DNA of 49,072 nt from positions 1 to 49,072 of IMG/VR virus record IMGVR_UViG_3300047311_000868; one strand, written 5' to 3'. The position numbers and the translations under genes are program-made. This document shows positions 7,547 through 41,047 of the stretch, piece by piece (within the stretch, counting starts at the first letter, position 1; every line of letters starts with the position of its first letter). The notes under the pieces are model-generated. The model saw nothing but the letters and a program-made list of their open reading frames with translations. It was not told the DNA's origin and did not search any database. This stretch comes from a virus.

Positions 7547-8055
7547 CGGTTGACGACCTGCACCTGTTGCGGTTGGACGATATTGAGTACGTGCAGGAAC
7601 TGTTAGAGATGTACGCGGACATGGACGTGCCGAGGGAACACTTTGAAATCTTCAAGATAAACCTCTTGCAGCGGGTTGATAGTTGGTTTGTGGAGGCGTC
7701 TAACATAGGCCTCATCTACCTCACCAACATCGTGCCGGGCTTCACCGCCAACTTCCACGTCATCTTTTGGGACAAGAGGTTCGGCGCGAATAGACGAGAG
7801 ATTGTACGCAACGTCCTCGCAACAGCCTTTAGTGAATTCTTCCTCACGCGGATCACCGCACTCGTCCCTGAGACGAACGTACCCCTTGCCTATACGGAGC
7901 TGAAGAAGATCGGCTTCAAGCACGAGGGCGTGATGCGGAAGGGCTGGAGAGAGGTTGTGGACGTTGATTGCGTTGTGTATGGCTTGTTGAAAACGGAGGC
8001 AGTTGAATGGCAGCCAGTGGATCACCTGATGACTTCTTCGGCACCTCGTACTTGA
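7456..8055 (+). CDS. GNAT-family N-acetyltransferase (RimJ/RimL-like)
   Basis: The C-terminal ...ALVPETNVPLAYTELKKIGFKHEGVMRKGWREVVDVDCVVYGLLKTE matches the RimL-type GNAT end (N..s..l.eklGF..EG.lr......D...y.ll..e). The start is uncertain: the ATG at 7456 overlaps the upstream gene by 91 nt, and an alternative TTG at 7543 overlaps the upstream TGA. Confidence 0.55.
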   Translation: MDNYPDILEVQSSEHLSQSIHSRPEQPRQLTVDDLHLLRLDDIEYVQELLEMYADMDVPREHFEIFKINLLQRVDSWFVEASNIGLIYLTNIVPGFTANFHVIFWDKRFGANRREIVRNVLATAFSEFFLTRITALVPETNVPLAYTELKKIGFKHEGVMRKGWREVVDVDCVVYGLLKTEAVEWQPVDHLMTSSAPRT

Positions 8056-17052: not shown

Positions 17053-17234
17053 CAATGCACCTCTTCCTTCTTAGTGGGCGGCATCTCCGTTTTGCTCTCT
17101 GTCCCCTGCTCTACGTAGTCGAAAGCCTGCACCACCACCTTGCAGGACGGGCAGGAGTAGTGAGTGTAGGTCCGACCGAAAACATTGACGTAAGCACAAA
17201 TTGGACACATATACTCGTATTTCACTTCGACCAT
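17052..17234 (-). CDS. Small zinc-ribbon protein
   Basis: Internal Met43 of ORF 17052..17360 with SD ggaagg. MVEVKYEYMCPICAYVNVFGRTYTHYSCPSCKVV has CxxC...CxxC. Confidence 0.55.
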   Translation of the reverse strand: MVEVKYEYMCPICAYVNVFGRTYTHYSCPSCKVVVQAFDYVEQGTESKTEMPPTKKEEVH

Positions 17235-18616
17235 CCTTCCGGCGTTAGGTAGTATGAACGGGTTACTGCATCGTAATCCACCATCTTCGCTTCCCTTAAC
17301 GTCCCTACACTCGCTTTGAATTGGTCCTTGTTCATGCGGTGAGTGTTCATCCTCAACCACTCGGAGTGGGCTATTTGCCCTCCCTTCGCCTTCAACTGCT
17401 TCATGAGCTTTGCGCTTTCCTCTCCCATGGGGGTTTGACTCATCTCCGCAAAGGCCGCGGGGAGATTAGCCTCCACCCAGTTGAGGATGGATAGGGCTTG
17501 TTTTAGTTTAGGCAGCGTGAGGATGAGATCGGTATGCTTGTCAGGTTGTAACTCCGCGATTGTCAGGATCATTGCGAGCCTGTGGAGGTGGTCGGGTTTC
17601 CTCTCGACATACCCTGCAAACTGCCGCTCACTCGCAATACTCTCATGCTTGGTGTTGTACCAATCCACATACCAAGCGTCCGCCTCGTCGGTGATGGCGA
17701 ACTTGCCGCGAAGGCGCGTGTAGGCGAAGAGCTCCTTCTTCAGCCGTGACTGCACCACAAGATCCAATGGTGGAGGGTGAGGAAAAGACCGAGGCGTATC
17801 GTTCTGTACCACGAAAAGAAGGCGCGACATGAACCCTCCTCCAAACGCGTCTCGGGGAATCGCGGTCTGGATCCAGTCCATTGTACTACATACCAAGAAC
17901 GAGAGAGCAACGTTTCGGAGTTGGTTATCACCTCGCATAATAGTGGCAGACGACCACTCCTTAGGGCAGTCGAAAAGGGCAGTAAGTAGAGGGACCATCC
18001 CCTCTTGGTATTTTTGCTTACCGAGGAATACTGCAAGCTCGGGTGCGTAGATAAGCCCCGTAGCGGAAGACCTGTCTTGAAATGCAGAGATGAGAGCTTC
18101 TGGCGTGACCTTATCTGCAAGTACGTTCCCCCCAATCGCTCGAAACAAACCCACCGCGACGTTGCAAGCACTTGTCTTTCGGCACTTGCCACTTGGTGCA
18201 ACGATAACGACGCAGAGGTTGGGAAAAATTTGGTAGGGACCCATGTCAAAGAATACATTACGAGCAAGTGACGATCCGATAGCAGACATGCCCGCGAAAA
18301 AGTGAAAGACTGTGGGGGGCTCGGTGTTTCGGGTGTATTCGATGTAGTCATGTAACCATCCAGTGCAGGGTACGAGGTCGTCGAAAGTGCCTTGCTTTAC
18401 CTGCGCCTTTAACGCCTTCGTCAAGGCAACGTCGTCTAGGCCGAGCTTCGCCTTTATTAAAGCCGTGAGCGTGTCAGGACGACCAGCTATAGGGATGTCC
18501 CTAACCCACTTCAAAACCTTGTCTCGAAGCTCCTCATCTTTTAATTCCGCCGAGGTCATCGCTTTTATATACTTCGACAGAAGTTCAATCTGTCGAGAGA
18601 GCGTCATCGGGGGCAT
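17222..18616 (-). CDS. DUF3987-type P-loop protein, putative replicative helicase
   Basis: 464 aa with a Walker-A-like VIVAPSGKCRKTSA and Walker-B-like LLFVVQND. The overall layout resembles DUF3987/YfjI-type phage helicases. Confidence 0.6.
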   Translation of the reverse strand: MPPMTLSRQIELLSKYIKAMTSAELKDEELRDKVLKWVRDIPIAGRPDTLTALIKAKLGLDDVALTKALKAQVKQGTFDDLVPCTGWLHDYIEYTRNTEPPTVFHFFAGMSAIGSSLARNVFFDMGPYQIFPNLCVVIVAPSGKCRKTSACNVAVGLFRAIGGNVLADKVTPEALISAFQDRSSATGLIYAPELAVFLGKQKYQEGMVPLLTALFDCPKEWSSATIMRGDNQLRNVALSFLVCSTMDWIQTAIPRDAFGGGFMSRLLFVVQNDTPRSFPHPPPLDLVVQSRLKKELFAYTRLRGKFAITDEADAWYVDWYNTKHESIASERQFAGYVERKPDHLHRLAMILTIAELQPDKHTDLILTLPKLKQALSILNWVEANLPAAFAEMSQTPMGEESAKLMKQLKAKGGQIAHSEWLRMNTHRMNKDQFKASVGTLREAKMVDYDAVTRSYYLTPEGWSK

Positions 18617-18630: not shown

Positions 18631-19371
18631 TTAGAGGAACTTGCGCAGGTACGCGATGTTGTACGTCACGTCTGCTAGGTGCGTGCTAGCTGCCTTCTTC
18701 TCCACATCTCCCAACTTACCGAGGCCCCTTAACTGCAGCTTCTCGTTGATGCGTTTGCCTGCCACCCCAAACTTGATCGCCTTGGACGTGTCGACGGACG
18801 TGCGCTTACTCTCAATACCCATCTCATCGAAGAGGTTACGGAAGGCTTGCAGTTCCCACAATTCATTCACGCCGAGAAGGTGGATGCGAGGCGGCCATTG
18901 GATGTATTTTGGGATCTTTAACAGTAGATCCGAGAACCACTCAAAGCGAGGTTCGCGGAAGGGCAAACAAAGCATCTTGCAGTGCTTCATCGTCTTCATG
19001 AAGAATTCCGCTCTCTCTGCGGGAGACACGCCGGTAAGGACTGCCCCTACTCCATACTCGGCTGGCAGTACGTGTCGGAGTTCTTCGAAGGCGTCAAGTC
19101 CAAAACGGTAGTCACCAAGCCGATCAGGAGCAATAACCACGCTAGGTTTAATACGGTCAGCGGCCGCCACAAGTTCGGGGACAGATAGAGGATGACCGAG
19201 TTCGTGAAAACCATTGTCCAGAATGACAAGCCGACCAAGCTCGCTTTGACGACGGTAGAAGTTCGCATAGTACTCATCCTCCAAAACGTAGTGGGCGATT
19301 GCGAAGTCGCCGTCGCAAAGCGGGCTCAACGTGTCCAGCCAGAACTTTGGGATTTCCATCATCAAACGCAT
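18631..19371 (-). CDS. dpdA: TGT-fold protein, putative DNA 7-deazaguanine transglycosylase (DpdA-like)
   Basis: 246 aa with SD aggagg-N5-ATG. Motifs parallel tRNA-guanine transglycosylase landmarks: VILDNGFHE (cf. DSGGFQ), PRIHLLGVNE (cf. RYLMGVG) and SVDTSKAIKFG (cf. MFDCVLPTR). The genome also encodes FolE, QueD, QueE and QueC. Confidence 0.55.
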   Translation of the reverse strand: MRLMMEIPKFWLDTLSPLCDGDFAIAHYVLEDEYYANFYRRQSELGRLVILDNGFHELGHPLSVPELVAAADRIKPSVVIAPDRLGDYRFGLDAFEELRHVLPAEYGVGAVLTGVSPAERAEFFMKTMKHCKMLCLPFREPRFEWFSDLLLKIPKYIQWPPRIHLLGVNELWELQAFRNLFDEMGIESKRTSVDTSKAIKFGVAGKRINEKLQLRGLGKLGDVEKKAASTHLADVTYNIAYLRKFL

Positions 19372-19380
19372 TTACGCCTC

Positions 19381-21861
19381 CTACAGGCCGAGTTCCTTCT
19401 CTAACTGTTTATTACCTTTTTTGCACTCTCTCCAATTGCCCCCGAGATGTATGTCAGCAGGACAGAACCATCCGTTAGGATAGTATCTTTTGACAACTTC
19501 AGGTCGATCAGAAAAGTCAACGATTGCTGGCCACTTTGTATGCATAATGTCGCGAACACACTCAATGGCACGTCGGACACACTCTCGTTGGGCATTAATA
19601 AGAACTGAATCGTGAACGGTGAGTCTAAGAGTAGCTCCATGGGGAAGTTGCCTTTCCAACATTGGCAGGATGAGGTACATCATATCCGCCGCAGTGCTGC
19701 TAGGTGGAAAGTTATAGACTTCTGTGACTTGCTTAGTGTACCACCATCTGCGCCTACCAGCAAAGTTACGGAGGTACGAGTTCTTTGCAACAAAACCTTC
19801 CAAGTTTCCCCGCCAGGCCCAGTATACAGGAAAACGTGTTCTAAACCTCTGCATGAACGACTCAACCCATTGGATAGGGCGAGAAAGTTGCTTAGCAATG
19901 TCAGCAGCGCCTCGCCCATAGCCGAGGCCATATACGATGAACTTCGTTTCAAATCGAGGTGAGCCATGTCCGCCGCTATACTCCTCGTCGAGGCGTTTGA
20001 CTTCGTCGAGGGTGAGGCCGAAACACTCCGCAGCCACGACGCTGTGGTTATCTGCGCCTGCCGCAAGGAGGCTAAGTCCGAACGGCTCCCCGCTAAGGAC
20101 CATGGCCGCGGCCCACTCAACCTGCTTCCAGTCGGCTTCGATGAGGATGTCTTCGGGAGAGTCGGGGATGTAGAGGTCCCGGCACTCTGGTGGTTGGTTT
20201 TGGAAGTTTGGCTGCCAAGAGACGAGCCTCCCATTCCTAGCGCCGCTTCCCTTTTCCTTGCCATGCTCGTCCTTTCCCTTCTCGGTCGCCGCCTTGGCCG
20301 AGCCTAGTTTGTAGTGGACGAAGTTGTCTTCATCCGTCTCAATGCCCTCAAGGTAGGTGCTGTCTAACTTCTTTATTTTCCGCCTTTGGAGGACGAGCTT
20401 GAAGATTGCGTTATCAGTAAGAGTTGCAAGAGCATCAAGAGCGTTGTCATCAACAGTGGGAATAAAACCCCGCTTCTTGTCACGTTTATACTGGACAGGA
20501 AGGCCCATGCGATTGTACAGTAAATCAGAAAGCTGTTTAGGCGAATCAAGGTTGAGATCTTGTCCAAGCACATTTTTGAGCTTGACTTCCATGTTTGCTG
20601 CTGTGCGTTTACAGCCAACGCTGAGGCGGAATGCTGCTTCTTCATTACGACGTAGCCCCCTACTACTCATGTTGCGGAGGACAGGTTGGAGGGGCATGAC
20701 CGACTTGTAGTATAGGTCAGTCATACCCAAGCTTGTCAGCTCGGACTTCAGCCCAATATAAGCGCGAGTCGTGGCGTCGATGTCTTTGCAGTTACCGAGT
20801 TTAAGTGCTTCGAAACCGGCCTTGTACATCTCCTTTCCCTTCCACACGTCGATGTCGGAATATAGGGAAGCGATGAACTCGAGGTTCTTCTCCAGTTCAG
20901 AGTTTGTTAGGTGAAAGGCTTGAAGCGTGTCGAAGCTAGGGCCGTTGAAGGAAAGGCCCCTTCGTTCGATATAAGGTATATCGAACCCTTCGGAGTTTTG
21001 GCCAACCTTTTCGATGTTAGGGTCAGCAAAGAGTTCACGGCAGACGCGCTGAGTTTCAGGTGTCCAATGGAGAGCGTGACCTTCATATGGCCTCGTGGCA
21101 AGGCCCATAACTGTAATCTGACCTGTGCTGAGGTCCAAGCCTTTACCCTTCTTCCCCACAATCCCTTCCGCTTCGAGGTCGAAGGTGATAAAGCCGCTTG
21201 CTCTTGCAGCATTGACAAAATCCTCTCCACTGCATGGAAGGCTACCGCTTGTGTTGTACTTGACCTCAATACGACGGAGTTCGGGGAACTCTGCTTCTGT
21301 CTTGGCCTTGGCGAGGTCGTGGACGGCGAGGGGGTAGAGTTCTTGACTCCGCATGATGAAGGCGGGGTGGTAAACGGCAAGGACTTTTGTCTTGCGTTCC
21401 GCGTTGTTGTCTTTGTCATGGAGTGTAGGGCCTTCGAGGATCCTCCCCCTGTAAGTGCCAATTTGTACACGTCCAGTGGTGACGTATAGGGCTGTTGCGC
21501 CAAGTGCGACGATGAGGTTCGGACGAATGGTTTCCAACTCTTTGGAAAGGAAGACTGCGCAGTGACGGATTTCGGCTTCGGTCGGGGCGCGGTCAACCTC
21601 TTTGCCATTGTTGTTCACCTCGGTCGGCCTACACTTCACAACATTTCTCACCTCTGCGCTGTCGCGGTGGATGCCTACTTGCCCGCACCACCTATACAGC
21701 ACCCGTCCGCTACCACCAATGAAGTTACGGTTGACTGCGACTTCGTCCTTGCCCGGGGCCTCACCGAGGAAGAGAAGTTTATTTGGAGAGGGGGGTGGAC
21801 CGAAAACTGGGCCTGGGGCGGAGTGTAGAGGACACCCCAGGCACCAGTCGGGTTTACTCAT
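19381..21861 (-). CDS. Family A DNA polymerase with 3'-5' exonuclease and an N-terminal family-4 uracil-DNA-glycosylase domain
   Basis: The start is at internal Met53 (ATGAGTAA overlap with the csp stop). UDG motifs: CLGCPL, FLGEAPGKDE, FIGGSGRVL, VYHPAFIMR. Exo motifs: ITFDLEAEG, QNSEGFDIPYI. Pol motifs: LIEADWKQVEW (A), RFETKFIVYGLGYG (B), LTVHDSVLI (C). Confidence 0.85.
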   Translation of the reverse strand: MSKPDWCLGCPLHSAPGPVFGPPPSPNKLLFLGEAPGKDEVAVNRNFIGGSGRVLYRWCGQVGIHRDSAEVRNVVKCRPTEVNNNGKEVDRAPTEAEIRHCAVFLSKELETIRPNLIVALGATALYVTTGRVQIGTYRGRILEGPTLHDKDNNAERKTKVLAVYHPAFIMRSQELYPLAVHDLAKAKTEAEFPELRRIEVKYNTSGSLPCSGEDFVNAARASGFITFDLEAEGIVGKKGKGLDLSTGQITVMGLATRPYEGHALHWTPETQRVCRELFADPNIEKVGQNSEGFDIPYIERRGLSFNGPSFDTLQAFHLTNSELEKNLEFIASLYSDIDVWKGKEMYKAGFEALKLGNCKDIDATTRAYIGLKSELTSLGMTDLYYKSVMPLQPVLRNMSSRGLRRNEEAAFRLSVGCKRTAANMEVKLKNVLGQDLNLDSPKQLSDLLYNRMGLPVQYKRDKKRGFIPTVDDNALDALATLTDNAIFKLVLQRRKIKKLDSTYLEGIETDEDNFVHYKLGSAKAATEKGKDEHGKEKGSGARNGRLVSWQPNFQNQPPECRDLYIPDSPEDILIEADWKQVEWAAAMVLSGEPFGLSLLAAGADNHSVVAAECFGLTLDEVKRLDEEYSGGHGSPRFETKFIVYGLGYGRGAADIAKQLSRPIQWVESFMQRFRTRFPVYWAWRGNLEGFVAKNSYLRNFAGRRRWWYTKQVTEVYNFPPSSTAADMMYLILPMLERQLPHGATLRLTVHDSVLINAQRECVRRAIECVRDIMHTKWPAIVDFSDRPEVVKRYYPNGWFCPADIHLGGNWRECKKGNKQLEKELGL

Positions 21862-22057
21862 CGAAGACCACTTCTTCCGCCCTCGGTCCTTTTGGCGTGG
21901 TGGTGATTTTGAAGTCGGTGCGTTTACCGCGCAGGTCTTCCGTCCACAACGTGCCGTCGACGATGCCGCTTTTGTGGAAGAAGTACTCCTTCCCATCCTC
22001 CGCGAGGATGAATCCAAAGCCCTTATCCCGCACGAGAGTCTTAACGGTTCCGGTCAT
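21854..22057 (-). CDS. Cold-shock domain protein (CspA-like)
   Basis: MTGTVKTLVRDKGFGFILAEDGKEYFFHKSGI matches the CSD RNP1/RNP2 pattern (KGFGFI, FFH). The ATG at 22057 overlaps the upstream TGA (ATGA). Confidence 0.8.
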   Translation of the reverse strand: MTGTVKTLVRDKGFGFILAEDGKEYFFHKSGIVDGTLWTEDLRGKRTDFKITTTPKGPRAEEVVFDE

Positions 22058-22377
22058 TGTACGCTCCATTTTTTCTGCACGCCTAAAGGAGAGGTTGTGA
22101 TTTCGACGGAGAAGGAAACTGGTGGGTTGACTTTGTTCTCTTCACACTCCGCCCAATGCATTTTTTGCAGGTGGAGGAGAATTCGGTAGAGACCTCCAAT
22201 GACTTTTGTTTGCGAGCCGGGGATGTACCCGATTGTCAAGCCGCACCACGGGCAGACGCCTTCGTACGTGAAGCCGTCTTCGAGGTTGCCGTGTTGGATG
22301 AAGGAGACGGGACGTCGTTGATTCCCCTTCCCGTCGCTTTCGGATAGGATGTCGTGGACGAGGCGTTTGTCGGGCAT
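22054..22377 (-). CDS. Hypothetical protein downstream of folE
   Basis: 107-aa ORF with SD ggagg-N6-ATG. It contains CPWCG. No family recognised. Confidence 0.55.
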   Translation of the reverse strand: MPDKRLVHDILSESDGKGNQRRPVSFIQHGNLEDGFTYEGVCPWCGLTIGYIPGSQTKVIGGLYRILLHLQKMHWAECEENKVNPPVSFSVEITTSPLGVQKKWSVQ

Positions 22378-22923
22378 TTACGGCCTCCCTATCAGCCTTA
22401 GGAACTCTTCCCTCGCGGTTGGGTTTAACAGAAAGACGCCGTGCATCGAAGAAGTGACGACGTCTCCAGTGGTGCGAACTCCACGGCATCGCATGCAACC
22501 GTGCTCTCCCACGATAACGCAGCCCGCACCTTTCGCATCGGTGCGAGAGAAAAGATCATACGCCACTTTGTCGGTAAACTCTTCTTGCAGCACGGGGCGC
22601 ACGCGATGCTCTTCAAGCAGTCTTGCAAGCTTTGATAGCCCCAACACTCGCTTGTTCGGGATATAACCCAAATATGCCCGCATTTCAAACGGAAGAAGGT
22701 GATGTGGACATACGCCGAAGACCGTATGCCCACGGAGGAGGACGAGTCCAGCATGATTGCTAGGAAAGTCCTTGAAAGTGTTTTTCGGAAGGGTAAGAAT
22801 TTCTTCATACATCCTCGCTACGCGTTGAGGCGTTTCCACGAAGTTAGGGTCTTTGAGGTCACAGCCCATTCCTTTCAGTAAGAGCCGTACGCCATCCTCC
22901 ATCTGCTTTTTGTTCACACTCAC
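22378..22923 (-). CDS. folE: GTP cyclohydrolase I
   Basis: ETPQRVARMYEE, VCPHHLLPF, GLSKLARLLE...RPVLQEEFT and GEHGCMRCRGVRTTG....TSSMHGVF match FolE signatures. The GTG start overlaps the queE stop (GTGA). Confidence 0.88.
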   Translation of the reverse strand: MSVNKKQMEDGVRLLLKGMGCDLKDPNFVETPQRVARMYEEILTLPKNTFKDFPSNHAGLVLLRGHTVFGVCPHHLLPFEMRAYLGYIPNKRVLGLSKLARLLEEHRVRPVLQEEFTDKVAYDLFSRTDAKGAGCVIVGEHGCMRCRGVRTTGDVVTSSMHGVFLLNPTAREEFLRLIGRP

Positions 22924-23561
22924 CTCGTGCGGATGTATTTGTGGAGTTGCGTGGAGAGGCGGAGTTCGGGGTTACTCATCACGACGTTAAGGGCCTCCTC
23001 CATATGGTGGTGGTTGATGGAGATGCGGTCGTTGTTGGGTTGTATGTACACACGAGAGCCGTGCTTGGCCCAGTTCTTCGCATCGGAGACGGAAGGCCAA
23101 CCATCACCATCGCCCAACCCGTCGAGGATGACCTTGACTTCGTCGGCGGACGTGACAACGTCGTCGAGGTAACCAGGCTTTGGGCTGACCGTGAACCACC
23201 CCATGTGGGAGTGGAGGATGGACCACAACCACTCGGGAATTGCCTTTGTCCCACTACTCTCAACATGAACACGAATGTCGTTGCGGGTGAGCAGTTCGGT
23301 GAGGGAGGAGAGGTCCCGGTCGAGGGGCTCCCCTCCCGTCAGGCAAACGTACTTGTAGTTGTCCACCCAGGTTAGGAGCTCTTCCTGGTTGTACAGGCCA
23401 CCACCAAGATCGGGGAGCGTGCGGTCGAAGTCGGTGTCGCAGTTGTGGCAGATGCCCTTGCCTACGGAGCAGCCGACGAACCGGATGAAGGCCATGGGCA
23501 CGCCTACATACATACCCTCGCCCTGCGGGGCTTTGAACTTCTCAGCGACGGGGAAACGCAT
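22920..23561 (-). CDS. queE: 7-carboxy-7-deazaguanine synthase (radical SAM)
   Basis: KAPQGEGMYVGVPMAFIRFVGCSVGKGICHNCDTDF (QGEG plus the Cx..CxxC-type cluster region) and C-terminal LRLSTQLHKYI. SD ggagg upstream. Confidence 0.85.
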   Translation of the reverse strand: MRFPVAEKFKAPQGEGMYVGVPMAFIRFVGCSVGKGICHNCDTDFDRTLPDLGGGLYNQEELLTWVDNYKYVCLTGGEPLDRDLSSLTELLTRNDIRVHVESSGTKAIPEWLWSILHSHMGWFTVSPKPGYLDDVVTSADEVKVILDGLGDGDGWPSVSDAKNWAKHGSRVYIQPNNDRISINHHHMEEALNVVMSNPELRLSTQLHKYIRTR

Positions 23562-23943
23562 TGGGGTTCCTCCAGGTAGCGGAGTACTTGTCGGTTTCGT
23601 GGACGGTTACTTTTGTAACGGATAAGAGGTGGTGGTGGACGAGTTCGCTACCAATCACTTCGGCAAGGTATTCGGTTGTAGGCTCCTCATTCGTTGAATA
23701 CGTACGGAAACCCATGTCCTCAAGGACGATGAGGAGGGGGTCTTCCTTCTGTAAGATCATCGCATGATCCATCGGCTGGAGTACTTGCCAAAGTAAGGCG
23801 TCGAGGACTTTGAAGTCGAGGAAGCCAGTTACGTCGACGTCAACCACCACCACAATATTGTGGCCGTGTGGGGAGGAGCAAATGCCCTTGTAACTGGGCA
23901 AGCGGTGCCCAATACTAGCGGTTCTTTTGACTGTCACGATCAT
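23542..23943 (-). CDS. queD: 6-carboxy-5,6,7,8-tetrahydropterin synthase
   Basis: Internal Met13 preceded by aggagg. ASIGHRLPSYKGICSSPHGHNIVVVVDV matches the PTPS/QueD C..HGH motif. Confidence 0.85.
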   Translation of the reverse strand: MIVTVKRTASIGHRLPSYKGICSSPHGHNIVVVVDVDVTGFLDFKVLDALLWQVLQPMDHAMILQKEDPLLIVLEDMGFRTYSTNEEPTTEYLAEVIGSELVHHHLLSVTKVTVHETDKYSATWRNPNAFPRR

Positions 23944-24094
23944 TGAGTAGTTCCTCCTCGTGCTTGCGAAGTATGGCACGTACTGCGTCCTTTACCTCAC
24001 CCCACTTCTTCTCGTGTTCGGAGTAGTAACTGTGCGTGGTTGCGGTGGTCGCGATTGTCAGGCCGAAGAAGTCAACCTGGACGAGTGCAGTCAC
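23915..24094 (-). CDS. Possible small protein (59 aa) filling the gap between 24091 and queD
   Basis: The GTG start overlaps the upstream ATGTGA. The product VTALVQVDFFGLTIATTATTHSYYSEHEKKWGEVKDAVRAILRKHEEELL... uses GC3-rich codons. It falls below the ORF-track size cutoff. Confidence 0.4.
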   Translation of the reverse strand: MTALVQVDFFGLTIATTATTHSYYSEHEKKWGEVKDAVRAILRKHEEELLNDRDSQKNR

Positions 24095-24348
24095 ATTTCA
24101 CCCGTTAGCTGTTCGCGAAGGGTGAGGAGGTAGACAACCTGGTCCACTGCCTCGTCGATCGCGAAGTCGAGGATGGAGATAGAAGATTTTGCGGACAAGT
24201 CCCCTCCATGCTCTTGTTGCCCACGCCGGTATTTGTCGCTGATGCGGTGGCAAGCAGCAACGTTGATACGCGACAAATGTCCCTCCTGCTCGGCTGTCAT
24301 TGGAGGAGGAGTATCGAGCGTAGTTCCGAAGCCAGTATTCGCTGACAT
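24091..24348 (-). CDS. Hypothetical protein
   Basis: 85-aa ORF with SD agaggtga upstream of the ATG. Confidence 0.55.
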   Translation of the reverse strand: MSANTGFGTTLDTPPPMTAEQEGHLSRINVAACHRISDKYRRGQQEHGGDLSAKSSISILDFAIDEAVDQVVYLLTLREQLTGEM

Positions 24349-24371
24349 ACATATTCACCTCTTGAAGGTTA

Positions 24372-24416
24372 GCAGATACGGGGTGCGTACGTTCGTGATA
24401 GTCACCCCGTATCTGC
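24372..24416 (-). promoter_or_regulatory. Perfect 14-bp inverted repeat (GCAGATACGGGGTG N17 CACCCCGTATCTGC) in an intergenic gap; RNA hairpin or protein-binding site
   Basis: Read directly between the stop of 24424..24879 and the start of 24091..24348. No U-run follows on the minus strand, so it is not a canonical terminator. Confidence 0.5.
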
Positions 24417-24423
24417 TAGCGGT

Positions 24424-24879
24424 CTAGACAGACGCGATGAACTTCTTCACTTCATTTCGGGCCTGGTACGTCTGGGCTCCAACCGTCCTCTCGGGCTGGA
24501 TTGTGACAACCGCCATGAGTTCGACGTCCTTCAACTCATCCCAGTGCGGTTCGCCCTGGTCGTCCACCAACATCCACTCCTCGTCCATGCCGGCTGCCTC
24601 GCACAATTGGCGAAGCATGAAGTCGCCGCCCTTCTTGAAGGTGAGGGTGGTGTAGAGGTGGCGGCCAAGCACCACCTCACCGTTTTCGGAGTTTTCGTCG
24701 AGGATGACCGTTTCGACTTGCAAGTAAGGATCCTTCGCCTGGCTGTTCTGGTGTGCCGCCTTCCACGCGGCGTCGTGCACGTCGTTGAACTCGAACCCGT
24801 GGATGCGGATGCGGTACGTCCCTTCCTGGAAGGGTTTGCCCGAGGTCATATCCTTGACTGCGTAAGGTGCGAGATTCAT
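24424..24879 (-). CDS. DUF669-like protein, putative ssDNA-binding partner of the Sak4-like ATPase
   Basis: 151 aa directly downstream of a Sak4/AAA_24-like gene, which is the usual pairing. SD ggggag upstream. The assignment rests on context and size only. Confidence 0.45.
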   Translation of the reverse strand: MNLAPYAVKDMTSGKPFQEGTYRIRIHGFEFNDVHDAAWKAAHQNSQAKDPYLQVETVILDENSENGEVVLGRHLYTTLTFKKGGDFMLRQLCEAAGMDEEWMLVDDQGEPHWDELKDVELMAVVTIQPERTVGAQTYQARNEVKKFIASV

Positions 24880-24959
24880 TCCACACTCCCCATACCAACC
24901 CTGCTATGCAAAGTAGGCCAAACACCACTGGCAGGTTGATCAGTAGTAGGCCCATACCG

Positions 24960-25772
24960 CTAACGATTAGAGACAGGAGCAGTCTTTTTCCGATCAGCGT
25001 CAAATGTGATTTCGTTGAGGGCGTCACGGTCTCCCATCATGACTTTGATTAGTAGGCCAATGTCGGGTTTGACGTACCTCGGCAAGCGCATGCTTTCTGG
25101 TACGCGTACACCCGCAACTGCCCTATTTTCGGTTTCCGTTACAAACACTCGCTTACCCGAAACCATCTTCAGCCGGACGACTGCATCGAAGCTGCCGGGG
25201 AGCTCTTTGTATAGTTTTGCTCCAGGCAGTTCAATGCAGGGGTAGGAGACCTTGTCGGTACCTTCGCCCTCTTCCGCAAGGCCTTCTCTCGCTACGCAAA
25301 TTAAGTGCGCGCGTAGCATCATCAACTTCTTTGTCGCTTGGCGTCCTTTCTCCGCCACGTATCCGTAGGGTCTGCGGGGATCCCAACCTGGCCCTGCCAT
25401 CCCTACCTCAGTGCGTCCGAGCATTTTTAACGCCAGGTCCATCCACAACGTCCCGAAGCAGGAGTAGCTGTCTGCAATGACGTGCGTGTATGTGGTGCCT
25501 TGGTACTGGCAGTGGTCCTTGAACCTCATCATCTCCGCCAGGACCAGTTCGGCTGTCGGCCAGTCTCGCAGTTCGATGAAGGGGATCTTAAAGTCTTGGA
25601 GCGTTTGCAGACCTTGAGTGTCCCCGTCTTCGGAAGCAAGGATGATTTTCGGGTCAGGTGTTGTCTTTCCCGCCACGAGTGTTTTCCCCAGCTTCGCCGG
25701 AGCGTAGAGGAGGATTGTTGCCCACTCCGCTCTTACCAACGACGTCAGAGAAGGTGTGGGTAGTGTCGTCAT
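24960..25772 (-). CDS. Sak4-like RecA-fold ATPase (AAA_24), recombination/annealing protein
   Basis: N-terminal Walker A ILLYAPAKLGKT and Walker-B-like HVIADSYS. The 270-aa size is typical of phage Sak4. Confidence 0.6.
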   Translation of the reverse strand: MTTLPTPSLTSLVRAEWATILLYAPAKLGKTLVAGKTTPDPKIILASEDGDTQGLQTLQDFKIPFIELRDWPTAELVLAEMMRFKDHCQYQGTTYTHVIADSYSCFGTLWMDLALKMLGRTEVGMAGPGWDPRRPYGYVAEKGRQATKKLMMLRAHLICVAREGLAEEGEGTDKVSYPCIELPGAKLYKELPGSFDAVVRLKMVSGKRVFVTETENRAVAGVRVPESMRLPRYVKPDIGLLIKVMMGDRDALNEITFDADRKKTAPVSNR

Positions 25773-25989
25773 AGATGAGCACCCTGTCGTTTTTCTCCGC
25801 CATTAACCTGCATGCAATTCTCCCATCCACGCTTATCATAGCGAAGATTGGTTTCCAGTCGTCGGTGCGGTAGCGTCGAAGCTCAACAGAGATGGAGTTG
25901 TCGCGAGTGGTGGGGATGAGGCGAACCTCACCCCACTTCTTCAACCCTTCGAAGAGCTCGAGCCGGGGGAGGACGCTATCCCTCGGCAC
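25654..25989 (-). CDS. Hypothetical protein (start uncertain; 3' end overlaps the Sak4-like gene by ~119 nt)
   Basis: Frame of ORF 25654..26058. The first 23 codons overlap the upstream acidic-protein gene, so GTG 25989 or TTG 25944 is the more likely start. Confidence 0.4.
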   Translation of the reverse strand: MPRDSVLPRLELFEGLKKWGEVRLIPTTRDNSISVELRRYRTDDWKPIFAMISVDGRIACRLMAEKNDRVLIYDDTTHTFSDVVGKSGVGNNPPLRSGEAGENTRGGKDNT

Positions 25990-26164
25990 TGTCCTTGTCC
26001 TCTTCGTTGTCGTCGTCGTTCTTAGCGTCTGCGAAGATGTCAACGGCAACATCACCAAAGGTGTCGCAGATGCTGTCTTCCTGCTCGTCGGTGAGCTCGC
26101 TGTTGTCGGTTACGACTTCGTCGACGAGGTCGGAGAGTTTGCTCTTAAATTCGTCACGTGTCAT
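25976..26164 (-). CDS. Small highly acidic protein (62 aa, about 37% Asp+Glu)
   Basis: Internal Met17 with SD aaggag. The ATG overlaps the upstream TGA (ATGA). Sequence: MTRDEFKSKLSDLVDEVVTDNSELTDEQEDSICDTFGDVAVDIFADAKNDDDNEEDKDSAEG. Confidence 0.6.
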   Translation of the reverse strand: MTRDEFKSKLSDLVDEVVTDNSELTDEQEDSICDTFGDVAVDIFADAKNDDDNEEDKDSAEG

Positions 26165-26469
26165 TGTACGGTCTCCTTCTCTTCGTTTTCGATGACTGCT
26201 AGGATGGCCCATTGACTCACGCTTAGGAACTCATGCTGTTCTCCTTTGTATGTGACGGTGAAGGGCTTGCCACTCCACCTGTCGAAGACGACCTTCTTGC
26301 CTTCCAGGCAGTCTTCTCCTTGTGCGTACCAGGTGAAGGTCGTGTTGTGGTGGACGACAAGTCCAGTTTTCGGCTTTTCTTTCGCCTTGCTGCCGTAGAT
26401 AACGCCGAACTTAGAAGCGGTGAGTTCGGCGTCAGCTGTGACGAAGCAGTAGCCTGGACGAGCCCTCAT
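26161..26469 (-). CDS. GroES/Cpn10-like co-chaperonin
   Basis: It aligns by eye to GroES: RARPGYCFVTADAELTASKFGVIYGSKAKEKPKTGLVV.. (cf. [41 protein letters not shown]) and EGKKVVFDRWSGKPF...EFLSVSQWAILAVIE (cf. VGDIVIFNDGYGVK....EVLIMSESDILAIVE). Confidence 0.55.
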   Translation of the reverse strand: MRARPGYCFVTADAELTASKFGVIYGSKAKEKPKTGLVVHHNTTFTWYAQGEDCLEGKKVVFDRWSGKPFTVTYKGEQHEFLSVSQWAILAVIENEEKETVQ

Positions 26470-26654
26470 GGCTGCACCTGCGGATCTACCTTGCCAGCTT
26501 TCTGAAACACTTCAGCGCGGAACCGATCGCACTGCGCCGAGAGTTCGTCGGCATCAAGGCTCTTGAGTGGAACGACAGTATCGCCACCCGCAACCCTGAC
26601 GTAATTGGGCGTCAGCCACGCTTGGAGCACGACGCGGATCGTGGGTTGCCTCAT
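26466..26654 (-). CDS. Hypothetical protein (high-GC island)
   Basis: 62-aa ORF with ATGA-coupled junctions on both sides. Confidence 0.5.
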   Translation of the reverse strand: MRQPTIRVVLQAWLTPNYVRVAGGDTVVPLKSLDADELSAQCDRFRAEVFQKAGKVDPQVQP

Positions 26655-27016
26655 GGCTGTTCCTTGCTAATCGTGATACTGCTTGGCTGGCCGTCCTCGG
26701 GAGGAAGCAGGGCCGCGAGATCGGCCCACGCGACATACTCGATCTTCCACGTCAGGCCATCGTTTCGTGTAATCGTGTGGGCATTGCGCGGCAGGGCGCG
26801 GATCTGCGCGAGGAGATCAGGGGCGGGCGGGTGCGCGTGCAGGAGCGCGGCCACCCGACTGAGTAGATTAGAGATACGAGCCGCCGATTCCCGATGAATC
26901 TCAGCCCATACCGTTCCGCCCTCTGGCATGAATCGATACTTGTCAAGGAACGCGGCCTGCCGTTCGCATTCTTCGATCACTTGTTCCAGTCCCACCCGGA
27001 GTCCGTCCGCGCTCAT
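26651..27016 (-). CDS. Hypothetical protein (high-GC island)
   Basis: 121-aa ORF with strongly GC3-rich codons and ATGA-coupled junctions. Confidence 0.55.
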   Translation of the reverse strand: MSADGLRVGLEQVIEECERQAAFLDKYRFMPEGGTVWAEIHRESAARISNLLSRVAALLHAHPPAPDLLAQIRALPRNAHTITRNDGLTWKIEYVAWADLAALLPPEDGQPSSITISKEQP

Positions 27017-27498
27017 GGCTGCACCGGAGGATCAGGGAGCGCCAGCTTCGCGTTGAGTGCATCCCGTAACTGCTCTAGCGACCGATATGTGAACACGCTG
27101 TCCGTGATGCCCATCCACCGGCAGGGGTCTGCTTCCATCGCTACCACGACCTTTCCAAGATGCAGATACCAACGGCCCGTAGACAGGCCAATTTCAAACT
27201 TCTCCTGTGGGGGCGTCGGCGGGTCCCTCTCGGCTACTTGGCGCGGTTGATCGGCAACTGATTGGCCTTTAAGAGCTTGGTTTGCTCGCGTAGTTCCTTC
27301 AGGATTTCTGAGAGCACCGACTTCAGCCCGTCGATGTCCTGCTTCTCTGCGGCTCGCGTCTCGTTCATGTTCTGCCTCCTGTCGGTCCCCCTCGGTGTCC
27401 AGCACGGCGGCAAGTTCGTCCGCACACTCAGAATAATCACAATATCCGCCCCGCCGCCATTTTGCTTCTAGCTCTCGGAGTCGTCGTTCGTCTATCAT
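27013..27498 (-). CDS. Hypothetical 161-aa ORF; its central third looks non-coding in this frame (see nested ORF 27234..27368)
   Basis: The ends have GC3-rich codons and plausible sequence. The middle (RDASRREAGHRRAEVGALRNPEGTTRANQALKGQS) has low GC3, while the alternative frame is GC3-rich. Confidence 0.4.
   Translation of the reverse strand: MIDERRLRELEAKWRRGGYCDYSECADELAAVLDTEGDRQEAEHERDASRREAGHRRAEVGALRNPEGTTRANQALKGQSVADQPRQVAERDPPTPPQEKFEIGLSTGRWYLHLGKVVVAMEADPCRWMGITDSVFTYRSLEQLRDALNAKLALPDPPVQP
27234..27368 (-). CDS. Candidate nested or alternative-frame small coiled-coil protein (44 aa)
   Basis: AGGAGG-N6-ATG at 27380..27366. The product is MNETRAAEKQDIDGLKSVLSEILKELREQTKLLKANQLPINRAK. 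GC3 is about 75% here against about 35% for the overlapping 161-aa frame (hand count). Confidence 0.4.
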   Translation of the reverse strand: MNETRAAEKQDIDGLKSVLSEILKELREQTKLLKANQLPINRAK

Positions 27499-28460
27499 CT
27501 CCCTACCTCGATGTTTGCTAAGAGCGAAGCGTTCGCCGGGATGTCGACGTAGTCCGCATCTCTCTGACGATATAGGGCACGTCGAGTTGGATTGTCTTCC
27601 AGACAGAGTTCACGATAGACGCAAGTTCCGTAGCGGAAGCATTCGTTGGTATTCTTATAGAAAACGGTCTTGGCATCTTCACCGGCAGAAACACGAGCCT
27701 TTCGCCACGCGATCTCCTTACCAATCTCAACAAACTCTCGCTCGAATTCACCAAGCTCTTCGTCAGAACGTGTTTTGAGGTCACGGACATACTGCGGGAT
27801 TTTTGTCTTGACGAGGACATCGATAATCACCCCTGCTACTCTTTGCTTGAGGAATTTGGTGATGGCGTAGGAGTACGCTGAAAATTGCATCGCCATCTCA
27901 TACTTCGATAGGTCCCGAAGGTCGAGCTTGCCCGCTGTCTTGTGGTCGACAATCCACAGTCTTTGGTTCCAGGTGGCGAGTTTGTCAGTGCGGAAGACGA
28001 GAATGATGTTGGTGCCTTCGCCCACCTCCACCTCGCCCTTAGTCTCCTGCGCGATGGGAATCCAAGTTGTCTTGCCGTCGTACTCCTCCGCGTAACCACG
28101 AAGTAGCTTCTCCACAATTTCGGATTGTGTGGAGAGGTCGTCGAGGTCGCCTGGCATGAGGCGCTTTGGGAGACTTGCCTTGAGGTTCTTCAACGACTCC
28201 TCAACGGCTTTGTCGACACTCTCTCCACTACCCAACAACGCAAGGCCAAGGTGGGTTGCGGTGCCGGTGTTGAGAGCCCATTTTGGTCTGTCTGATTCGA
28301 GGCGGCAGACATCCCACCAGTAGAATTTCCGGTGGCAGTCCTCATAGAGCTGTGCCCGGCTCTGGTTCAGGAACAACTTCGTCTGCGCCACGTCCGCCAT
28401 CACCAAATTCTGCTTCGTGTTGGACTGCCAGAAAGTCAGGGGGAACGTCTCCATCTCCAC
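27495..28460 (-). CDS. PD-(D/E)XK nuclease, Cas4/RecB-like exonuclease with Fe-S cysteines
   Basis: An N-terminal Cys (EDCHRKFYW), core LWIVDHKTAGK...QFSAYSY, and a C-terminal CFRYGTCVYRELC match the Cas4/AddB-type 4-Cys nuclease layout. Confidence 0.7.
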   Translation of the reverse strand: MEMETFPLTFWQSNTKQNLVMADVAQTKLFLNQSRAQLYEDCHRKFYWWDVCRLESDRPKWALNTGTATHLGLALLGSGESVDKAVEESLKNLKASLPKRLMPGDLDDLSTQSEIVEKLLRGYAEEYDGKTTWIPIAQETKGEVEVGEGTNIILVFRTDKLATWNQRLWIVDHKTAGKLDLRDLSKYEMAMQFSAYSYAITKFLKQRVAGVIIDVLVKTKIPQYVRDLKTRSDEELGEFEREFVEIGKEIAWRKARVSAGEDAKTVFYKNTNECFRYGTCVYRELCLEDNPTRRALYRQRDADYVDIPANASLLANIEVGR

Positions 28461-29169
28461 CTCTCATGCTGTTTCGTACGAGTTGTTCTTGCTCGGCGGA
28501 CAGTCGCGAAGCAGCTAAGTCGTTTCCGAAGAGGAAGGCGGAAGCGAGTGGCACGTTGCCGTCATTAGGTCGCACAAAGCCCTCAAAGACGCCGCCGTAT
28601 CCACCGCCATATCGGCCGTCACTGCGCAACGACGCACGGACGTGAAGCATGCCTCCTGAGAGTCGAACAGTGAGCCAGCCACCACCAACGATACCATATG
28701 TTCGGAGAGCCCGTTCGCTGTATCCAGTAGTGATGTCAAGGTCCGACACATCTGGCCAAAGCTCTCTTGTGCTTGGGAGTGGGAAGGCTTCGACGTCTGG
28801 GATCTCTCCCTGATCGACGGCGCAAAGGCCAGTGGCGATGCTGCTGGCGACAGCCGGAGCGATGTTAGCTTCGGTGATGAGGAATTCGGTGTATCGTCGT
28901 CTTGTTCCATAGTCCGTCCATTTACTAACCAACGCTGTTAGGTACTCATCGCACTGCGCCGCGTCCCAGGCGAAGGGGACGGCACGAAGTACGTATTGAC
29001 GGAAGGGGCCGGTTTTTACCGGCGGGCTTATCGCAAGGCCAAGGCACGAGGTGTTGTCGTCGTAGCTGTGAGTGCGAAGCCAGAGTCCTTCACGGGGACT
29101 GGACCAGATATCTTGGCGGGTGCGGAGGTGGTCGAGGAGTTGCTCAAACTCCCACCATTGTAGGTTCAT
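28342..29169 (-). CDS. Hypothetical 275-aa protein immediately downstream of queC (function unknown)
   Basis: Internal Met30 with SD ggagg, 5 nt after the queC stop. No motif recognised. The 3' ~119 nt overlaps the nuclease gene out of frame. Confidence 0.55.
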   Translation of the reverse strand: MNLQWWEFEQLLDHLRTRQDIWSSPREGLWLRTHSYDDNTSCLGLAISPPVKTGPFRQYVLRAVPFAWDAAQCDEYLTALVSKWTDYGTRRRYTEFLITEANIAPAVASSIATGLCAVDQGEIPDVEAFPLPSTRELWPDVSDLDITTGYSERALRTYGIVGGGWLTVRLSGGMLHVRASLRSDGRYGGGYGGVFEGFVRPNDGNVPLASAFLFGNDLAASRLSAEQEQLVRNSMRGGDGDVPPDFLAVQHEAEFGDGGRGADEVVPEPEPGTAL

Positions 29170-29173
29170 ACTA

Positions 29174-29869
29174 TTAGGCCTCCAGGAGTGCGGGGTCTTT
29201 CTCTCCCGCGGAAGCGAAGCCTTCAACGCGGATCTTACAGCTGTCACACTCCCCACAAGGTACGTCTCCTCCCGCGTAGCAGGACCAGGTGAGGCCGTAT
29301 GGCACTTTCAGGCTGCGCCCGAGAATGATGATTTCCGCCTTTGTGAGGTGGATGAGAGGAGTGTAGATGGTGACCTTTTGGGGGTTGACGTCCGACGTCT
29401 TAAAGCCCAACGCCAGGTCGATCGTCTCCATCAAGGCTGCGAAGAATTCGGGTCGGCAGTCGGGATAGCCAGAGTAATCAACTGCATTCCATCCTCCGAC
29501 GATGTCGTAAACTTTTTCCACGTACGCAATGCCTGCCGCGATGGAAAGCATGATGAGATTGCGGCCTGGGACGAAAGAAGGAGGAAGGTCGGACGGTGTC
29601 CTCTCAACGCTTTCAACGCTTGGATTGCCGTGGACAAGGCCGGAGGTAAGTGAGCTACCTCCAATAGTGGCGAAGGCTTGCGCGAGGTTGATGTTGCGTG
29701 GTGGTGCGAGGTCGAAGTGACGGCAGAGGAGTTGCGCACACGCTTGTTCTTTGGCATGTCGTTGTCCATAGAAGAAGGAAAGGGGGATGTGCGGAGGGGC
29801 TGTGTTGCGTAGCGCCCAGGCTAGGGATGTTGCTGAGTCAAGACCGCCAGATACGAGGATCACACTCAT
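29174..29869 (-). CDS. queC: 7-cyano-7-deazaguanine (preQ0) synthase
   Basis: ILVSGGLDSATS, FYGQRHAKE, FVPGRNLIMLSIAA, DYSGYPDCRPEFF and SCYAGGDVPCGECDSCKIRVEGF match QueC signatures. At 231 aa it has no fused amidotransferase domain. Confidence 0.9.
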   Translation of the reverse strand: MSVILVSGGLDSATSLAWALRNTAPPHIPLSFFYGQRHAKEQACAQLLCRHFDLAPPRNINLAQAFATIGGSSLTSGLVHGNPSVESVERTPSDLPPSFVPGRNLIMLSIAAGIAYVEKVYDIVGGWNAVDYSGYPDCRPEFFAALMETIDLALGFKTSDVNPQKVTIYTPLIHLTKAEIIILGRSLKVPYGLTWSCYAGGDVPCGECDSCKIRVEGFASAGEKDPALLEA

Positions 29870-30360
29870 TCTCCACGCTCCTTGAGATATTCCGCTTCCA
29901 GTTTCCGCATGATGCTGCGTTTTGTTTGCTCGTAGATGTTTTGTACGTTGCCAACCTCAACCTCCACATTCCACTTTTCGCGGAGGAGCGCTGCGTCGGC
30001 CTCGTATGTGGTGATGAGCGCTTTGGGGTAGGCAAACTCTGCACGGTAACCACGAGTGTGTTCAACGATCTGCCCCCAGAGGTACACTTGCCCGATAACC
30101 GGCCCGAAGGCCATGTCCTGGCAGAGTTGGTGGATGGTTTTGAAGGCGTACATTCCAACATTTCCACCTTTATAGGAGAATTGCCCTGGTGTGAAGGCGG
30201 GTTTGGCTGGCCCTCCGCAGTGATCGCAAATACTCTGCACGGGCTTGCCAGGCAGCCAGTAGTAGTTCCTTGCGTAGGCTTTCAGGCCGCCTGTGGAGCG
30301 GTCGATGCCTCCCCACGTTCTCCAACCAATAAGCGGTTCGAAGTAGTCAGGAATTTGCAT
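29866..30360 (-). CDS. Hypothetical 164-aa protein immediately upstream of queC (translationally coupled)
   Basis: The ORF overlaps the queC start by 4 nt. It contains GWRTWGG, CDHCGG, GMYAFK and GQVYLWGQIVEHTRGYRAEFAYP, which resembles a widespread phage family of unknown function. Confidence 0.6.
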   Translation of the reverse strand: MQIPDYFEPLIGWRTWGGIDRSTGGLKAYARNYYWLPGKPVQSICDHCGGPAKPAFTPGQFSYKGGNVGMYAFKTIHQLCQDMAFGPVIGQVYLWGQIVEHTRGYRAEFAYPKALITTYEADAALLREKWNVEVEVGNVQNIYEQTKRSIMRKLEAEYLKERGE

Positions 30361-41027: not shown

Positions 41028-41047
41028 TACACAGAAAAGAGGAGTGA

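Follow-up and report, generated by a model that had tools for sequence, protein, structure and literature searches.

7-Deazaguanine DNA modification is a known anti-restriction strategy, and the phage lineage in which we predict it here is new. In the Escherichia phages CAjan and 9g, which use a DpdA1 enzyme, at most about 30% of G is modified, at motifs, and a Gat-QueC in 9g leads to dG+ (PMC6884629). Bacterial Dpd forms a restriction-modification island in which DpdC turns the product into dADG, and its 413-aa DpdA, which contains a DNA-binding insertion, depends on the DpdB ATPase (PMC10164549). In the three characterised DpdA3 phages (phiST, immuto_2-6A and CP220; LC-MS), all G is replaced; which substrates the subfamily accepts is unsettled, and the authors considered it improbable that DpdA3 inserts preQ0 in phiST or in the phages of Campylobacter; no reconstitution of DpdA3 activity has been achieved (PMC10516641). 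The same study used PF01702 for recognising TGT/DpdA proteins, and distinguished the DpdL signature LxxxHRHxF from the QueD signature CxxxHGH (PMC10516641).

The window analysed here, i.e. the whole 49,072-nt stretch, is a complete uncultured phage genome of ~49 kb, circularly closed via a 127-nt end overlap and encoding an SU10-like portal. Five minus-strand ORFs (folE, queE, queD, queC and one encoding a 246-aa protein) lie exactly where the preliminary description had placed them (Table 1), and all motifs quoted there are present in the translations: ETPQRVARMY, CPHHLLPF, EHGCMRCRGV, QGEG, FVGCSVGKGICHNCDT, CSSPHGHN, SGGLDS, YPDCRPEF and CGECDSCKIR. The complete GTP-to-preQ0 pathway claimed for this locus is a real feature, with Pfam and NCBIfam recovering FolE, QueD, QueE and QueC and the signature residues intact in each. 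QueC scores 164.5 bits against NCBIfam TIGR00364, exceeding the cut-off of 150.3, and its SGGLDS PP-loop and C-terminal Cys cluster (WSC...CGECDSC) can be read in the translation. QueD bears the CxxxHGH signature (as CSSPHGH) and not the DpdL-type LxxxHRHxF; a GTG at 23979, upstream of the listed start, is an alternative start for this gene. The FolE match spans positions 2-178 of the 179-position GTP_cyclohydroI model, and both Zn motifs (CPHH and EHGCM) are present. QueE is matched by TIGR04508 and four other QueE models, all under their curated cut-offs, and by Radical_SAM (9.9e-5); it retains QGEG, TGGEP and the three cluster cysteines in a CX6CX2C arrangement (C31, C38 and C41). The junctions behind the proposed translational coupling of folE, queE and queD were read directly: the queE stop TGA and the folE GTG overlap as GTGA, and the queE ATG, preceded by GGAGG, lies 20 nt within the 3' end of queD.

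Table 1. Positions of the predicted pathway genes and their neighbours in the window
Feature	Coordinates	Strand	Predicted product	Evidence
DUF3987 gene	17222..18616	-	Primase/helicase-like protein, conserved downstream neighbour (context)	Pfam DUF3987 6.6e-15
dpdA3-like	18631..19371	-	Putative guanine/7-deazaguanine transglycosylase, 246 aa, minimal TIM barrel	Fold search and profile comparison
polA	19381..21861	-	UDG-fused family A DNA polymerase (context, outside the pathway)	Pfam DNA_pol_A 4.3e-41, UDG 7.4e-24
107-aa ORF	22054..22377	-	Directly downstream of folE	No family match except a chance-level Zn-ribbon
folE	22378..22923	-	GTP cyclohydrolase I, 181 aa	Pfam GTP_cyclohydroI 8.6e-41
queE	22920..23561	-	7-carboxy-7-deazaguanine synthase (radical SAM), 213 aa	TIGR04508 3.4e-23
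queD	23542..23943	-	6-carboxytetrahydropterin synthase, 133 aa	Pfam PTPS 3.3e-17; TIGR03367 1.6e-12
69-aa ORF	24091..24300	-	Helical hairpin, upstream of queD	AF2 pLDDT 94.6, two helices
275-aa ORF	28342-29169		Flanks queC	No detectable family
queC	29174..29869	-	7-cyano-7-deazaguanine (preQ0) synthase, 231 aa, without Gat domain	Pfam QueC 1.3e-58
164-aa ORF	29866-30360		Flanks queC	No detectable family

Since the contig is closed, the absence of further pathway genes holds for the whole genome. By Pfam, it encodes no QueF, Gat-QueC, ArcS, DpdN-type formyltransferase or second QueD-like gene; no amidotransferase gene was found in it, and the scans detected no further pathway or tailoring enzyme. 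It also differs from bacterial Dpd systems, as Pfam scans of essentially all its ORFs recovered no DpdB ATPase, DpdC or DpdD-K, and nothing pointing to DpdB, DpdC or any other dpd-island gene turned up in Pfam and PHROGs searches of the window ORFs. Given the lack of QueF, Gat-QueC, ArcS, DpdN-type formyltransferase and a second QueD-like gene, the default product predicted from gene content is dPreQ0 (2'-deoxy-preQ0), the same default that the preliminary description had reached after recognising no queF, Gat-QueC or arcS.

The 246-aa protein had been described as TGT-fold and DpdA-like. Curated profiles lend this no support: the protein has no Pfam or NCBIfam match, including to the DpdA4 family PF20314 (DUF6610), and none to Pfam TGT (PF01702) even at E<=10, which also separates it from the DpdA1 proteins of CAjan and 9g. 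Among its homologues listed with Pfam data, 51 in number, none has a Pfam domain. The fold was nevertheless borne out by structure prediction, fold search and profile comparison with DpdA3. The AF2 model (pLDDT 94.8, pTM 0.91) is a TIM barrel of the TGT-like (beta/alpha)8 type, for which Foldseek against the PDB places TGT (2pot, 3.7e-7) first and DpdA (7ui4, 1.1e-6) second, the best 18 matches all being TGT or DpdA. In BFVD, it matches a 259-aa protein of Cellulophaga phage phiST (TM 0.82/0.78), and the viral fold matches include phage proteins annotated as queuine tRNA-ribosyltransferase. By hhalign, the family aligns full-length (229-234 columns) with DpdA3 of Flavobacterium phage immuto_2-6A (99.5%, E 1.3e-22) and with the gp056 homologue of Campylobacter phage CP220 (99.5%, E 1.6e-22), at about 22-25% identity; tblastn is weak, yet reciprocal in direction. 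A protein beside PolA in Weizmannia phage Youna2 is likewise matched (98.9%). Similarity between the bacterial TGT profile and the family profile is not significant, and the latter retrieves no PDB TGT or DpdA sequence; the TGT link thus rests on the fold search and on transitive homology via DpdA3.

Eight residues (D52, N53, D83, H164, L165, G167, D194 and T195) are invariant in the extended family, and D52, D83 and D194, conserved throughout 26 diverse members that include known DpdA3, are the predicted catalytic residues. A statistically weak hhalign against the bTGT profile places D194 on Tgt D264, HLLG on YLMG and GxVxG..R on FGIIQG..R, whereas D52 and D83 are placed against TGT by motif only. 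The motif pairs, Tgt first, are LTDSGGF/ILDNGF, FDEC/APD, YLMGVG/HLLGVN and MFDCVMP/SVDTSKP. Based on the modelled TIM barrel matching TGT/DpdA, the full-length DpdA3 profile match and the three invariant aspartates, we assign the protein as a predicted divergent member of the DpdA3 family and not a DpdA1 of the CAjan/9g type. The precedent cited earlier for this locus holds in that a DpdA-like enzyme accompanies a preQ0 pathway, but the enzyme type is a distant DpdA3 rather than that of CAjan/9g or of bacterial DpdA. Two features of the protein were counted against a role in placing preQ0 in DNA: its net charge of about zero, unusual for a non-specific DNA enzyme, and its lack of the Zn subdomain of TGT.

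The adjacency to a DNA polymerase gene noted previously was also recovered: polA, the conserved upstream neighbour, is translationally coupled to the dpdA3-like gene, with 9 nt, including GGAGG, between its TAG and the ATG of the 246-aa ORF. Across 56 related loci, the dpdA3-like gene adjoins PolA in 54 and a primase/helicase-like gene in 48; folE is present in 49 and queE in 42, and queC in 8 of the 9 loci extending to its position. The order folE, UDG-PolA, dpdA3-like, primase is common to about 50 related IMG/VR viral contigs, and the dpdA3-like protein family comprises 3,911 cluster representatives at E<=1e-3. A homologue of the 107-aa ORF lies between folE and polA in 9/56 loci.

Compared with the characterised DpdA3 phages, the locus shares a Zn-less TGT-like barrel of about 250-265 aa, homologous by profile and fold, in which the invariant Asp, Asn and His-Leu-Gly motifs recur and whose gene accompanies folE, queD and queE near a DNA polymerase gene. 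However, the pathway here ends at QueC, whereas immuto has QueF and a formyltransferase, phiST has DpdL and CP220 is CDG-terminated; the predicted base is dPreQ0 as against three other measured bases; no dNMP kinase or NTP pyrophosphatase gene is adjacent; and the genome is ~49 kb with an SU10-like portal rather than myovirus-sized at 100-180 kb. The isolate Youna2 (OM293949.1) also encodes QueC, QueD, QueE and FolE, with the DpdA3-like protein directly upstream of PolA, but there the que genes are all contiguous, dpdA precedes polA, a P-loop protein lies beside dpdA, the DpdA3-like gene carries no annotation beyond hypothetical, and the phage infects a Firmicute. CAjan and 9g similarly combine a phage-encoded preQ0 pathway with a DNA guanine transglycosylase, with dPreQ0 in CAjan. 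Bacterial DpdA (7UI4), the second-best PDB fold match, inserts preQ0 into DNA, is built as a TIM barrel and has three invariant aspartates in its active site. Bacterial Tgt, the best fold match, has corresponding motifs but acts on tRNA, and the 246-aa protein is 130 residues shorter and without its C-terminal Zn subdomain (CxCxxC...H).

While the gene identities, fold, family membership, conserved residues and synteny with replication genes are observed in this analysis, we infer that the enzyme acts on DNA and inserts preQ0, as well as how far G is replaced and that the modification protects. We consider it likely that preQ0 made by the phage's own pathway is exchanged into its DNA by a DpdA3-type enzyme, yielding protective dPreQ0. 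In such a scheme, FolE would convert GTP to H2NTP, QueD would convert this to CPH4, QueE would form CDG, and QueC would produce preQ0, a free base supplied by the phage's own enzymes. The putative DpdA3-family transglycosylase, whose gene directly follows polA and is coupled to it, would then swap guanine in phage DNA for preQ0 through the double displacement of TGT/DpdA, with D194 acting as nucleophile, D52 serving as general acid/base and D83 recognising the base. Virion DNA would carry 2'-deoxy-preQ0, protecting the genome against restriction and other defences that target DNA. As characterised DpdA3 members replace G completely, substitution by dPreQ0 may, by analogy, be high.

The same machinery could instead yield dADG, dCDG or another derivative, if this DpdA3 prefers a CDG or ADG intermediate or if the 107-, 275- or 164-aa ORF tailors the base. 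The bases measured in characterised DpdA3 phages are dDG, dADG or fdPreQ1 and in no case dPreQ0, and DpdA3 specificity is deemed hard to predict (PMC10516641). We regard such an outcome as unlikely, though far from negligible, given a QueC that exceeds the equivalog cut-off for preQ0 synthase and the failure to find a QueF, formyltransferase, amidotransferase or second PTPS-like gene. The preliminary description had allowed that unassigned ORFs in the cluster might alter the end product, and several indeed lack a detectable family; however, in the related locus L011, both queC-flanking ORFs are kept while an 88-aa ORF replaces queC itself, so that they seem to be backbone genes bordering a variable slot and not genes for tailoring enzymes. 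The 69-aa ORF, with no significant PDB match and no Pfam or PHROG match, has homologues in unrelated integrase-bearing contexts and is probably unrelated to the pathway.

A quite improbable alternative to exchange on DNA is a pre-replicative route, in which the Zn-less DpdA3 would swap the base on dGMP/dGTP and the adjacent polymerase would incorporate the modified dNTP. This would account for complete replacement in DpdA3 phages and is consistent with the tight coupling to polA and the neutral to acidic character of DpdA3-like proteins. Nucleotide-metabolism genes flank DpdA3 genes in other phages, the neighbours being an NTP pyrophosphohydrolase and thymidylate kinase in immuto_2-6A, an HD-domain protein and thymidylate kinase in CP220, and the P-loop protein in Youna2. 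A PF18909 dATP/dGTP diphosphohydrolase-like gene also lies beside queD in 20/56 relatives, all 15 of the 15 scanned matching PF18909. All-alpha NTP pyrophosphatases are, however, common in phages, so their presence is weak evidence for this route; Pfam scans recognise no dNTP pyrophosphatase or dNMP kinase in this genome, and the ORF in the slot equivalent to the relatives' PF18909 gene lacks similarity to PF18909 proteins. The published model is, moreover, post-replicative (PMC10516641). Highly improbable is an RNA-directed or metabolic role, with preQ0/queuosine supplied for host tRNA or the 246-aa protein being an unrelated TIM-barrel enzyme. Curated families fail to recognise it, and aldolases and other TIM barrels are also among its Foldseek matches, at E ~5e-5, but TGT and DpdA structures rank above all other barrels, its full-length DpdA3 matches are to phages whose DNA is fully modified, its gene is linked to those for PolA and the primase, and no queA, queF or queG is present for completing queuosine.

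The preferred reading, own-pathway preQ0 with DpdA3-type exchange, extends the DpdA3 branch to a large group of uncultured phages with genomes of roughly 45-50 kb, whose signature dpdA3-like gene is missed entirely by current annotation pipelines. There is also a slim chance that the lineage provides the first genome with G fully replaced by dPreQ0, its Zn-less DpdA3 and coupled UDG-fused polymerase acting co-replicatively or at the deoxynucleotide level; if true, 7-deazaguanine DNA modification could no longer be viewed as being, in every case, a post-replicative exchange of bases on DNA. In metagenomic work, genomes of this phage group may prove resistant to restriction-based and some sequencing workflows. 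The pairing of DpdA3 with a pathway ending cleanly at preQ0 makes this lineage a useful test case for the substrate specificity and activity of the DpdA3 family.

Every open reading frame (ORF) that the preliminary description had assigned to the synthesis or transfer of preQ0 was present on the minus strand at the coordinates given, and each of the quoted motifs was found in the translations. Pfam and NCBIfam profiles recovered FolE (GTP_cyclohydroI, 8.6e-41), QueD (PTPS, 3.3e-17) and QueC (1.3e-58, with a TIGR00364 score above the curated cut-off), while five QueE models matched QueE (best 3.4e-23), none reaching its equivalog cut-off. The folE, queE and queD genes overlap at their junctions: the queE stop and folE start share GTGA, and the queE ATG lies 20 nt within the 3' end of queD, preceded by GGAGG. 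QueD carries the CxxxHGH signature and lacks LxxxHRHxF, which marks its decarboxylase paralogue DpdL. The cysteine cluster of QueE (C31, C38 and C41) has an unusual CX6CX2C spacing, unlike the canonical radical-SAM CX3CX2C; the best-matching NCBIfam QueE model also differs (CX14CX2C), and a QueE homologue in related locus L006 shares the spacing of the window protein.

Features of the viral genome, with positions in the window
Feature	Position	Strand	Remarks
dpdA3-like gene	18631-19371	-	246-aa protein
UDG-fused family A polymerase	19381-21861	-	N-terminal family-4 UDG domain (Pfam UDG, 7.4e-24)
Cold-shock-domain protein	21854-22069	-	Pfam CSD, 5e-12
folE	22378-22923	-
queE	22920-23561	-
queD	23542-23943	-
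69-aa ORF (JGI call)	24091-24300 (longer form 24091-24348)	-	upstream of queD
queC	29174-29869	-
164-aa and 275-aa ORFs with queC	28342-30360		ORFs flank queC
DUF3987 primase/helicase-like protein			replication block
Sak4-like AAA_24 protein			replication block
PD-(D/E)XK exonuclease			replication block
Cpn10-like protein			replication block
Portal	37724-39715		SU10 portal family match
Major capsid protein	41579-42496	+	Pfam Phage_capsid_4, 6.9e-17
IPT/TIG-domain ORF	47403 onward	+	crosses the end junction

The candidate transglycosylase gene begins 9 nt past the polymerase stop and is preceded by GGAGG. Its 246-aa product matched no curated Pfam or NCBIfam model, even at E<=10; the sole match in PHROGs was a weak one to the uncharacterised phrog_19058 (E 2e-4), PDB sequence searches with the protein or its family profile returned no match, and none of its 51 metagenomic homologues carried an annotation or Pfam domain. 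The TGT fold proposed for it was borne out by structure prediction. The AlphaFold2 model, built with 31 homologues in the input, is a (beta/alpha)8 barrel (pLDDT 94.8, pTM 0.91), and its top 18 PDB structure matches were all tRNA-guanine transglycosylases or the DNA preQ0 insertase DpdA (2pot, 3.7e-7; 7ui4, 1.1e-6), with generic aldolase barrels ranking below them at about 5e-5. The best named match among viral structures (BFVD) was M4SLA5, a 259-aa protein of Cellulophaga phage phiST (TM 0.82/0.78) and the putative counterpart of the published CGPG_00065, followed at lower ranks by a protein of Vibrio phage nt-1 and by actinophage proteins that carry the annotation queuine tRNA-ribosyltransferase; phiST was not recovered by tblastn. 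The net charge of the protein is about zero.

Relaxed tblastn searches gave weak matches in CP220-group Campylobacter phages and in Flavobacterium phage immuto_2-6A, where the matched protein is annotated as a DNA guanine transglycosylase, DpdA; the DpdA3 subfamily was defined in these phages by Cui, Hutinet et al. (PMC10516641). Profile-to-sequence comparison with hhalign aligned the window family, that is, the protein and its homologues, over the full length of immuto_2-6A DpdA and CP220 gp056 (99.5% probability, E ~1e-22), and also with a hypothetical protein that Weizmannia phage Youna2 encodes next to PolA (98.9%). When 26 diverse members were aligned jointly, twelve residues proved invariant: D52, N53, E57, P82, D83, G114, H164, L165, G167, D194, T195 and N238. 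Three active-site aspartates, serving as general acid/base, base-binding residue and nucleophile, are invariant in bacterial DpdA and TGT (PMC10164549), and by motif, ILD52NGF, APD83, HLLGVN and SVD194TSKP correspond to LTD89SGGF, FD143EC, YLMGVG and MFD264CVMP of Tgt. Against E. coli Tgt alone hhalign gave no significant match, and its match to a six-sequence bTGT profile was not significant (2.4% probability); the latter nevertheless gave the identical register in the C-terminal half, and this register alone was taken as weak support. Given the DpdA3 profile matches, the invariant residues, the absence of a Zn-binding Cys/His motif and failure in the Pfam PF01702 and PF20314 tests, we conclude that the protein is a divergent member of the DpdA3 family, not a DpdA1 (CAjan/9g type) or a bacterial DpdA. 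The original interpretation was essentially right, and the profile match to immuto_2-6A and CP220 refines its transglycosylase to DpdA3-type. When 1.84 billion cluster representatives were searched in full with an HMM, 3,911 relatives passed E<=1e-3 and 1,608 passed 1e-10, a large family with essentially no annotation.

Gene order was compared by local tblastn across 56 related loci, 52 from an IMG/VR pattern scan and 4 from metagenomes. The dpdA3-like gene adjoins the UDG-PolA gene in 54 of the 56, the DUF3987 gene comes next in 48, and in 49 folE is found a short way upstream of polA; 42 loci have queE and at least 33 have queD. As queC sits about 10 kb upstream, at the edge of the fetched flank, only nine loci reach its position, eight of which carry it. 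The UDG-PolA fusion, of a kind described among phage enzymes in a 2025 preprint (10.1101/2025.03.26.645540), is kept in nearly all loci, and the cold-shock gene, which lies between folE and the polymerase and overlaps the polymerase start, in 5/56. Homologues of the immuto_2-6A QueF, formyltransferase, MazG-like protein and thymidylate kinase were found in none of the 56. The species-representative genome collection yielded a single match, L061 (CAYWVZ010000011.1; 22.6 kb, 41% identity), which is binned in a Candidatus Saccharibacteria MAG and is probably a phage contig; a single contig of this size is too thin a basis for assigning a host.

Positions 1-127 of the window are identical to 48946-49072, so it represents an assembly of about 48.9 kb that is circularly closed or else carries a short repeat at its ends. 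Long minus-strand ORFs at 40560-43130 were rejected as spurious, the real genes there being on the plus strand. Pfam scans of essentially all ORFs of the closed genome detected no second TGT-like gene, QueF, QueC-fused amidotransferase, ArcS, formyltransferase or second PTPS paralogue, in agreement with the preliminary description, which had recognised no queF, no Gat domain on QueC and no arcS. To the extent that known families can show, the pathway is therefore predicted to end at preQ0.

Among the unassigned ORFs near the pathway genes, neither those flanking queC nor the 69-aa ORF found support as a tailoring enzyme. Only seven homologues of the 275-aa ORF that follows queC were found, all unannotated and lacking a domain, and the ORF stays where queC is missing. 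In L011 (69-1670) both flanking ORFs are kept while an 88-aa ORF replaces queC, and for this reason they resemble backbone genes that border a variable slot. With that slot so occupied and no queC seen within 20.7 kb of L011, some members of the lineage may take the pathway no further than CDG or depend on their host.

The best-supported reading is preQ0 synthesis followed by DpdA3-like exchange into phage DNA. Four phage enzymes would make preQ0 from GTP, and the DpdA3-like barrel, expressed alongside the replication genes, would exchange it for guanine through the double-displacement chemistry of TGT/DpdA, giving dPreQ0 DNA resistant to restriction. Family membership suggests that replacement is high, possibly complete, as judged from three distantly related DpdA3 phages. 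The main uncertainty of the dPreQ0 reading is the inserted base. In the DpdA3 phages characterised so far it is dDG, dADG or fdPreQ1, and DpdA3 activity has never been reconstituted (PMC10516641).

More speculatively, the DpdA3-like enzyme could act at the nucleotide level instead of on DNA. Nucleotide-metabolism genes flank DpdA3 in immuto_2-6A, CP220 and Youna2, and a PF18909 gene (dATP/dGTP diphosphohydrolase N-terminal, MazZ-like) lies just upstream of queD in 20 of the 56 related loci (L006:1588-1968, L011:4725-5333 and L032:2915-3262, for example), with all 15 sequences scanned matching the family (best 2.6e-16). The window itself, however, has no such genes; its slot is filled by the unrelated 69-aa ORF, which AF2 models as a helical hairpin that matches nothing in the PDB and whose homologues occur in unrelated integrase-bearing elements. 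A role for this ORF as an all-alpha NTP pyrophosphatase like the PF18909 proteins was unsupported, BLAST and hhalign finding no similarity.

Exchange of preQ0 into DNA remains our preferred reading, and the finding of a preQ0 pathway with a DpdA3-type enzyme is real. No cultured phage is close enough to lend its DNA chemistry: when phage genomes were searched with the region by megablast there was no match, and among isolates the best PolA identity is ~26%. Youna2 (OM293949.1, L007), an isolate, nevertheless has the same gene set at 7896-14719 (QueC, QueD, QueE, FolE, a P-loop protein and the DpdA3-like protein), and its DpdA3-like gene abuts PolA, lying unannotated directly upstream of it; DpdA3-like matches also occur in six Bacillus phages (BSP7/BSTP group). 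The type of modification system is already known; what the window adds is an uncultured lineage whose key gene escapes curated Pfam and NCBIfam models, and Youna2 and the Bacillus phages offer cultured material for examining DpdA3 alongside a pathway that terminates in preQ0.
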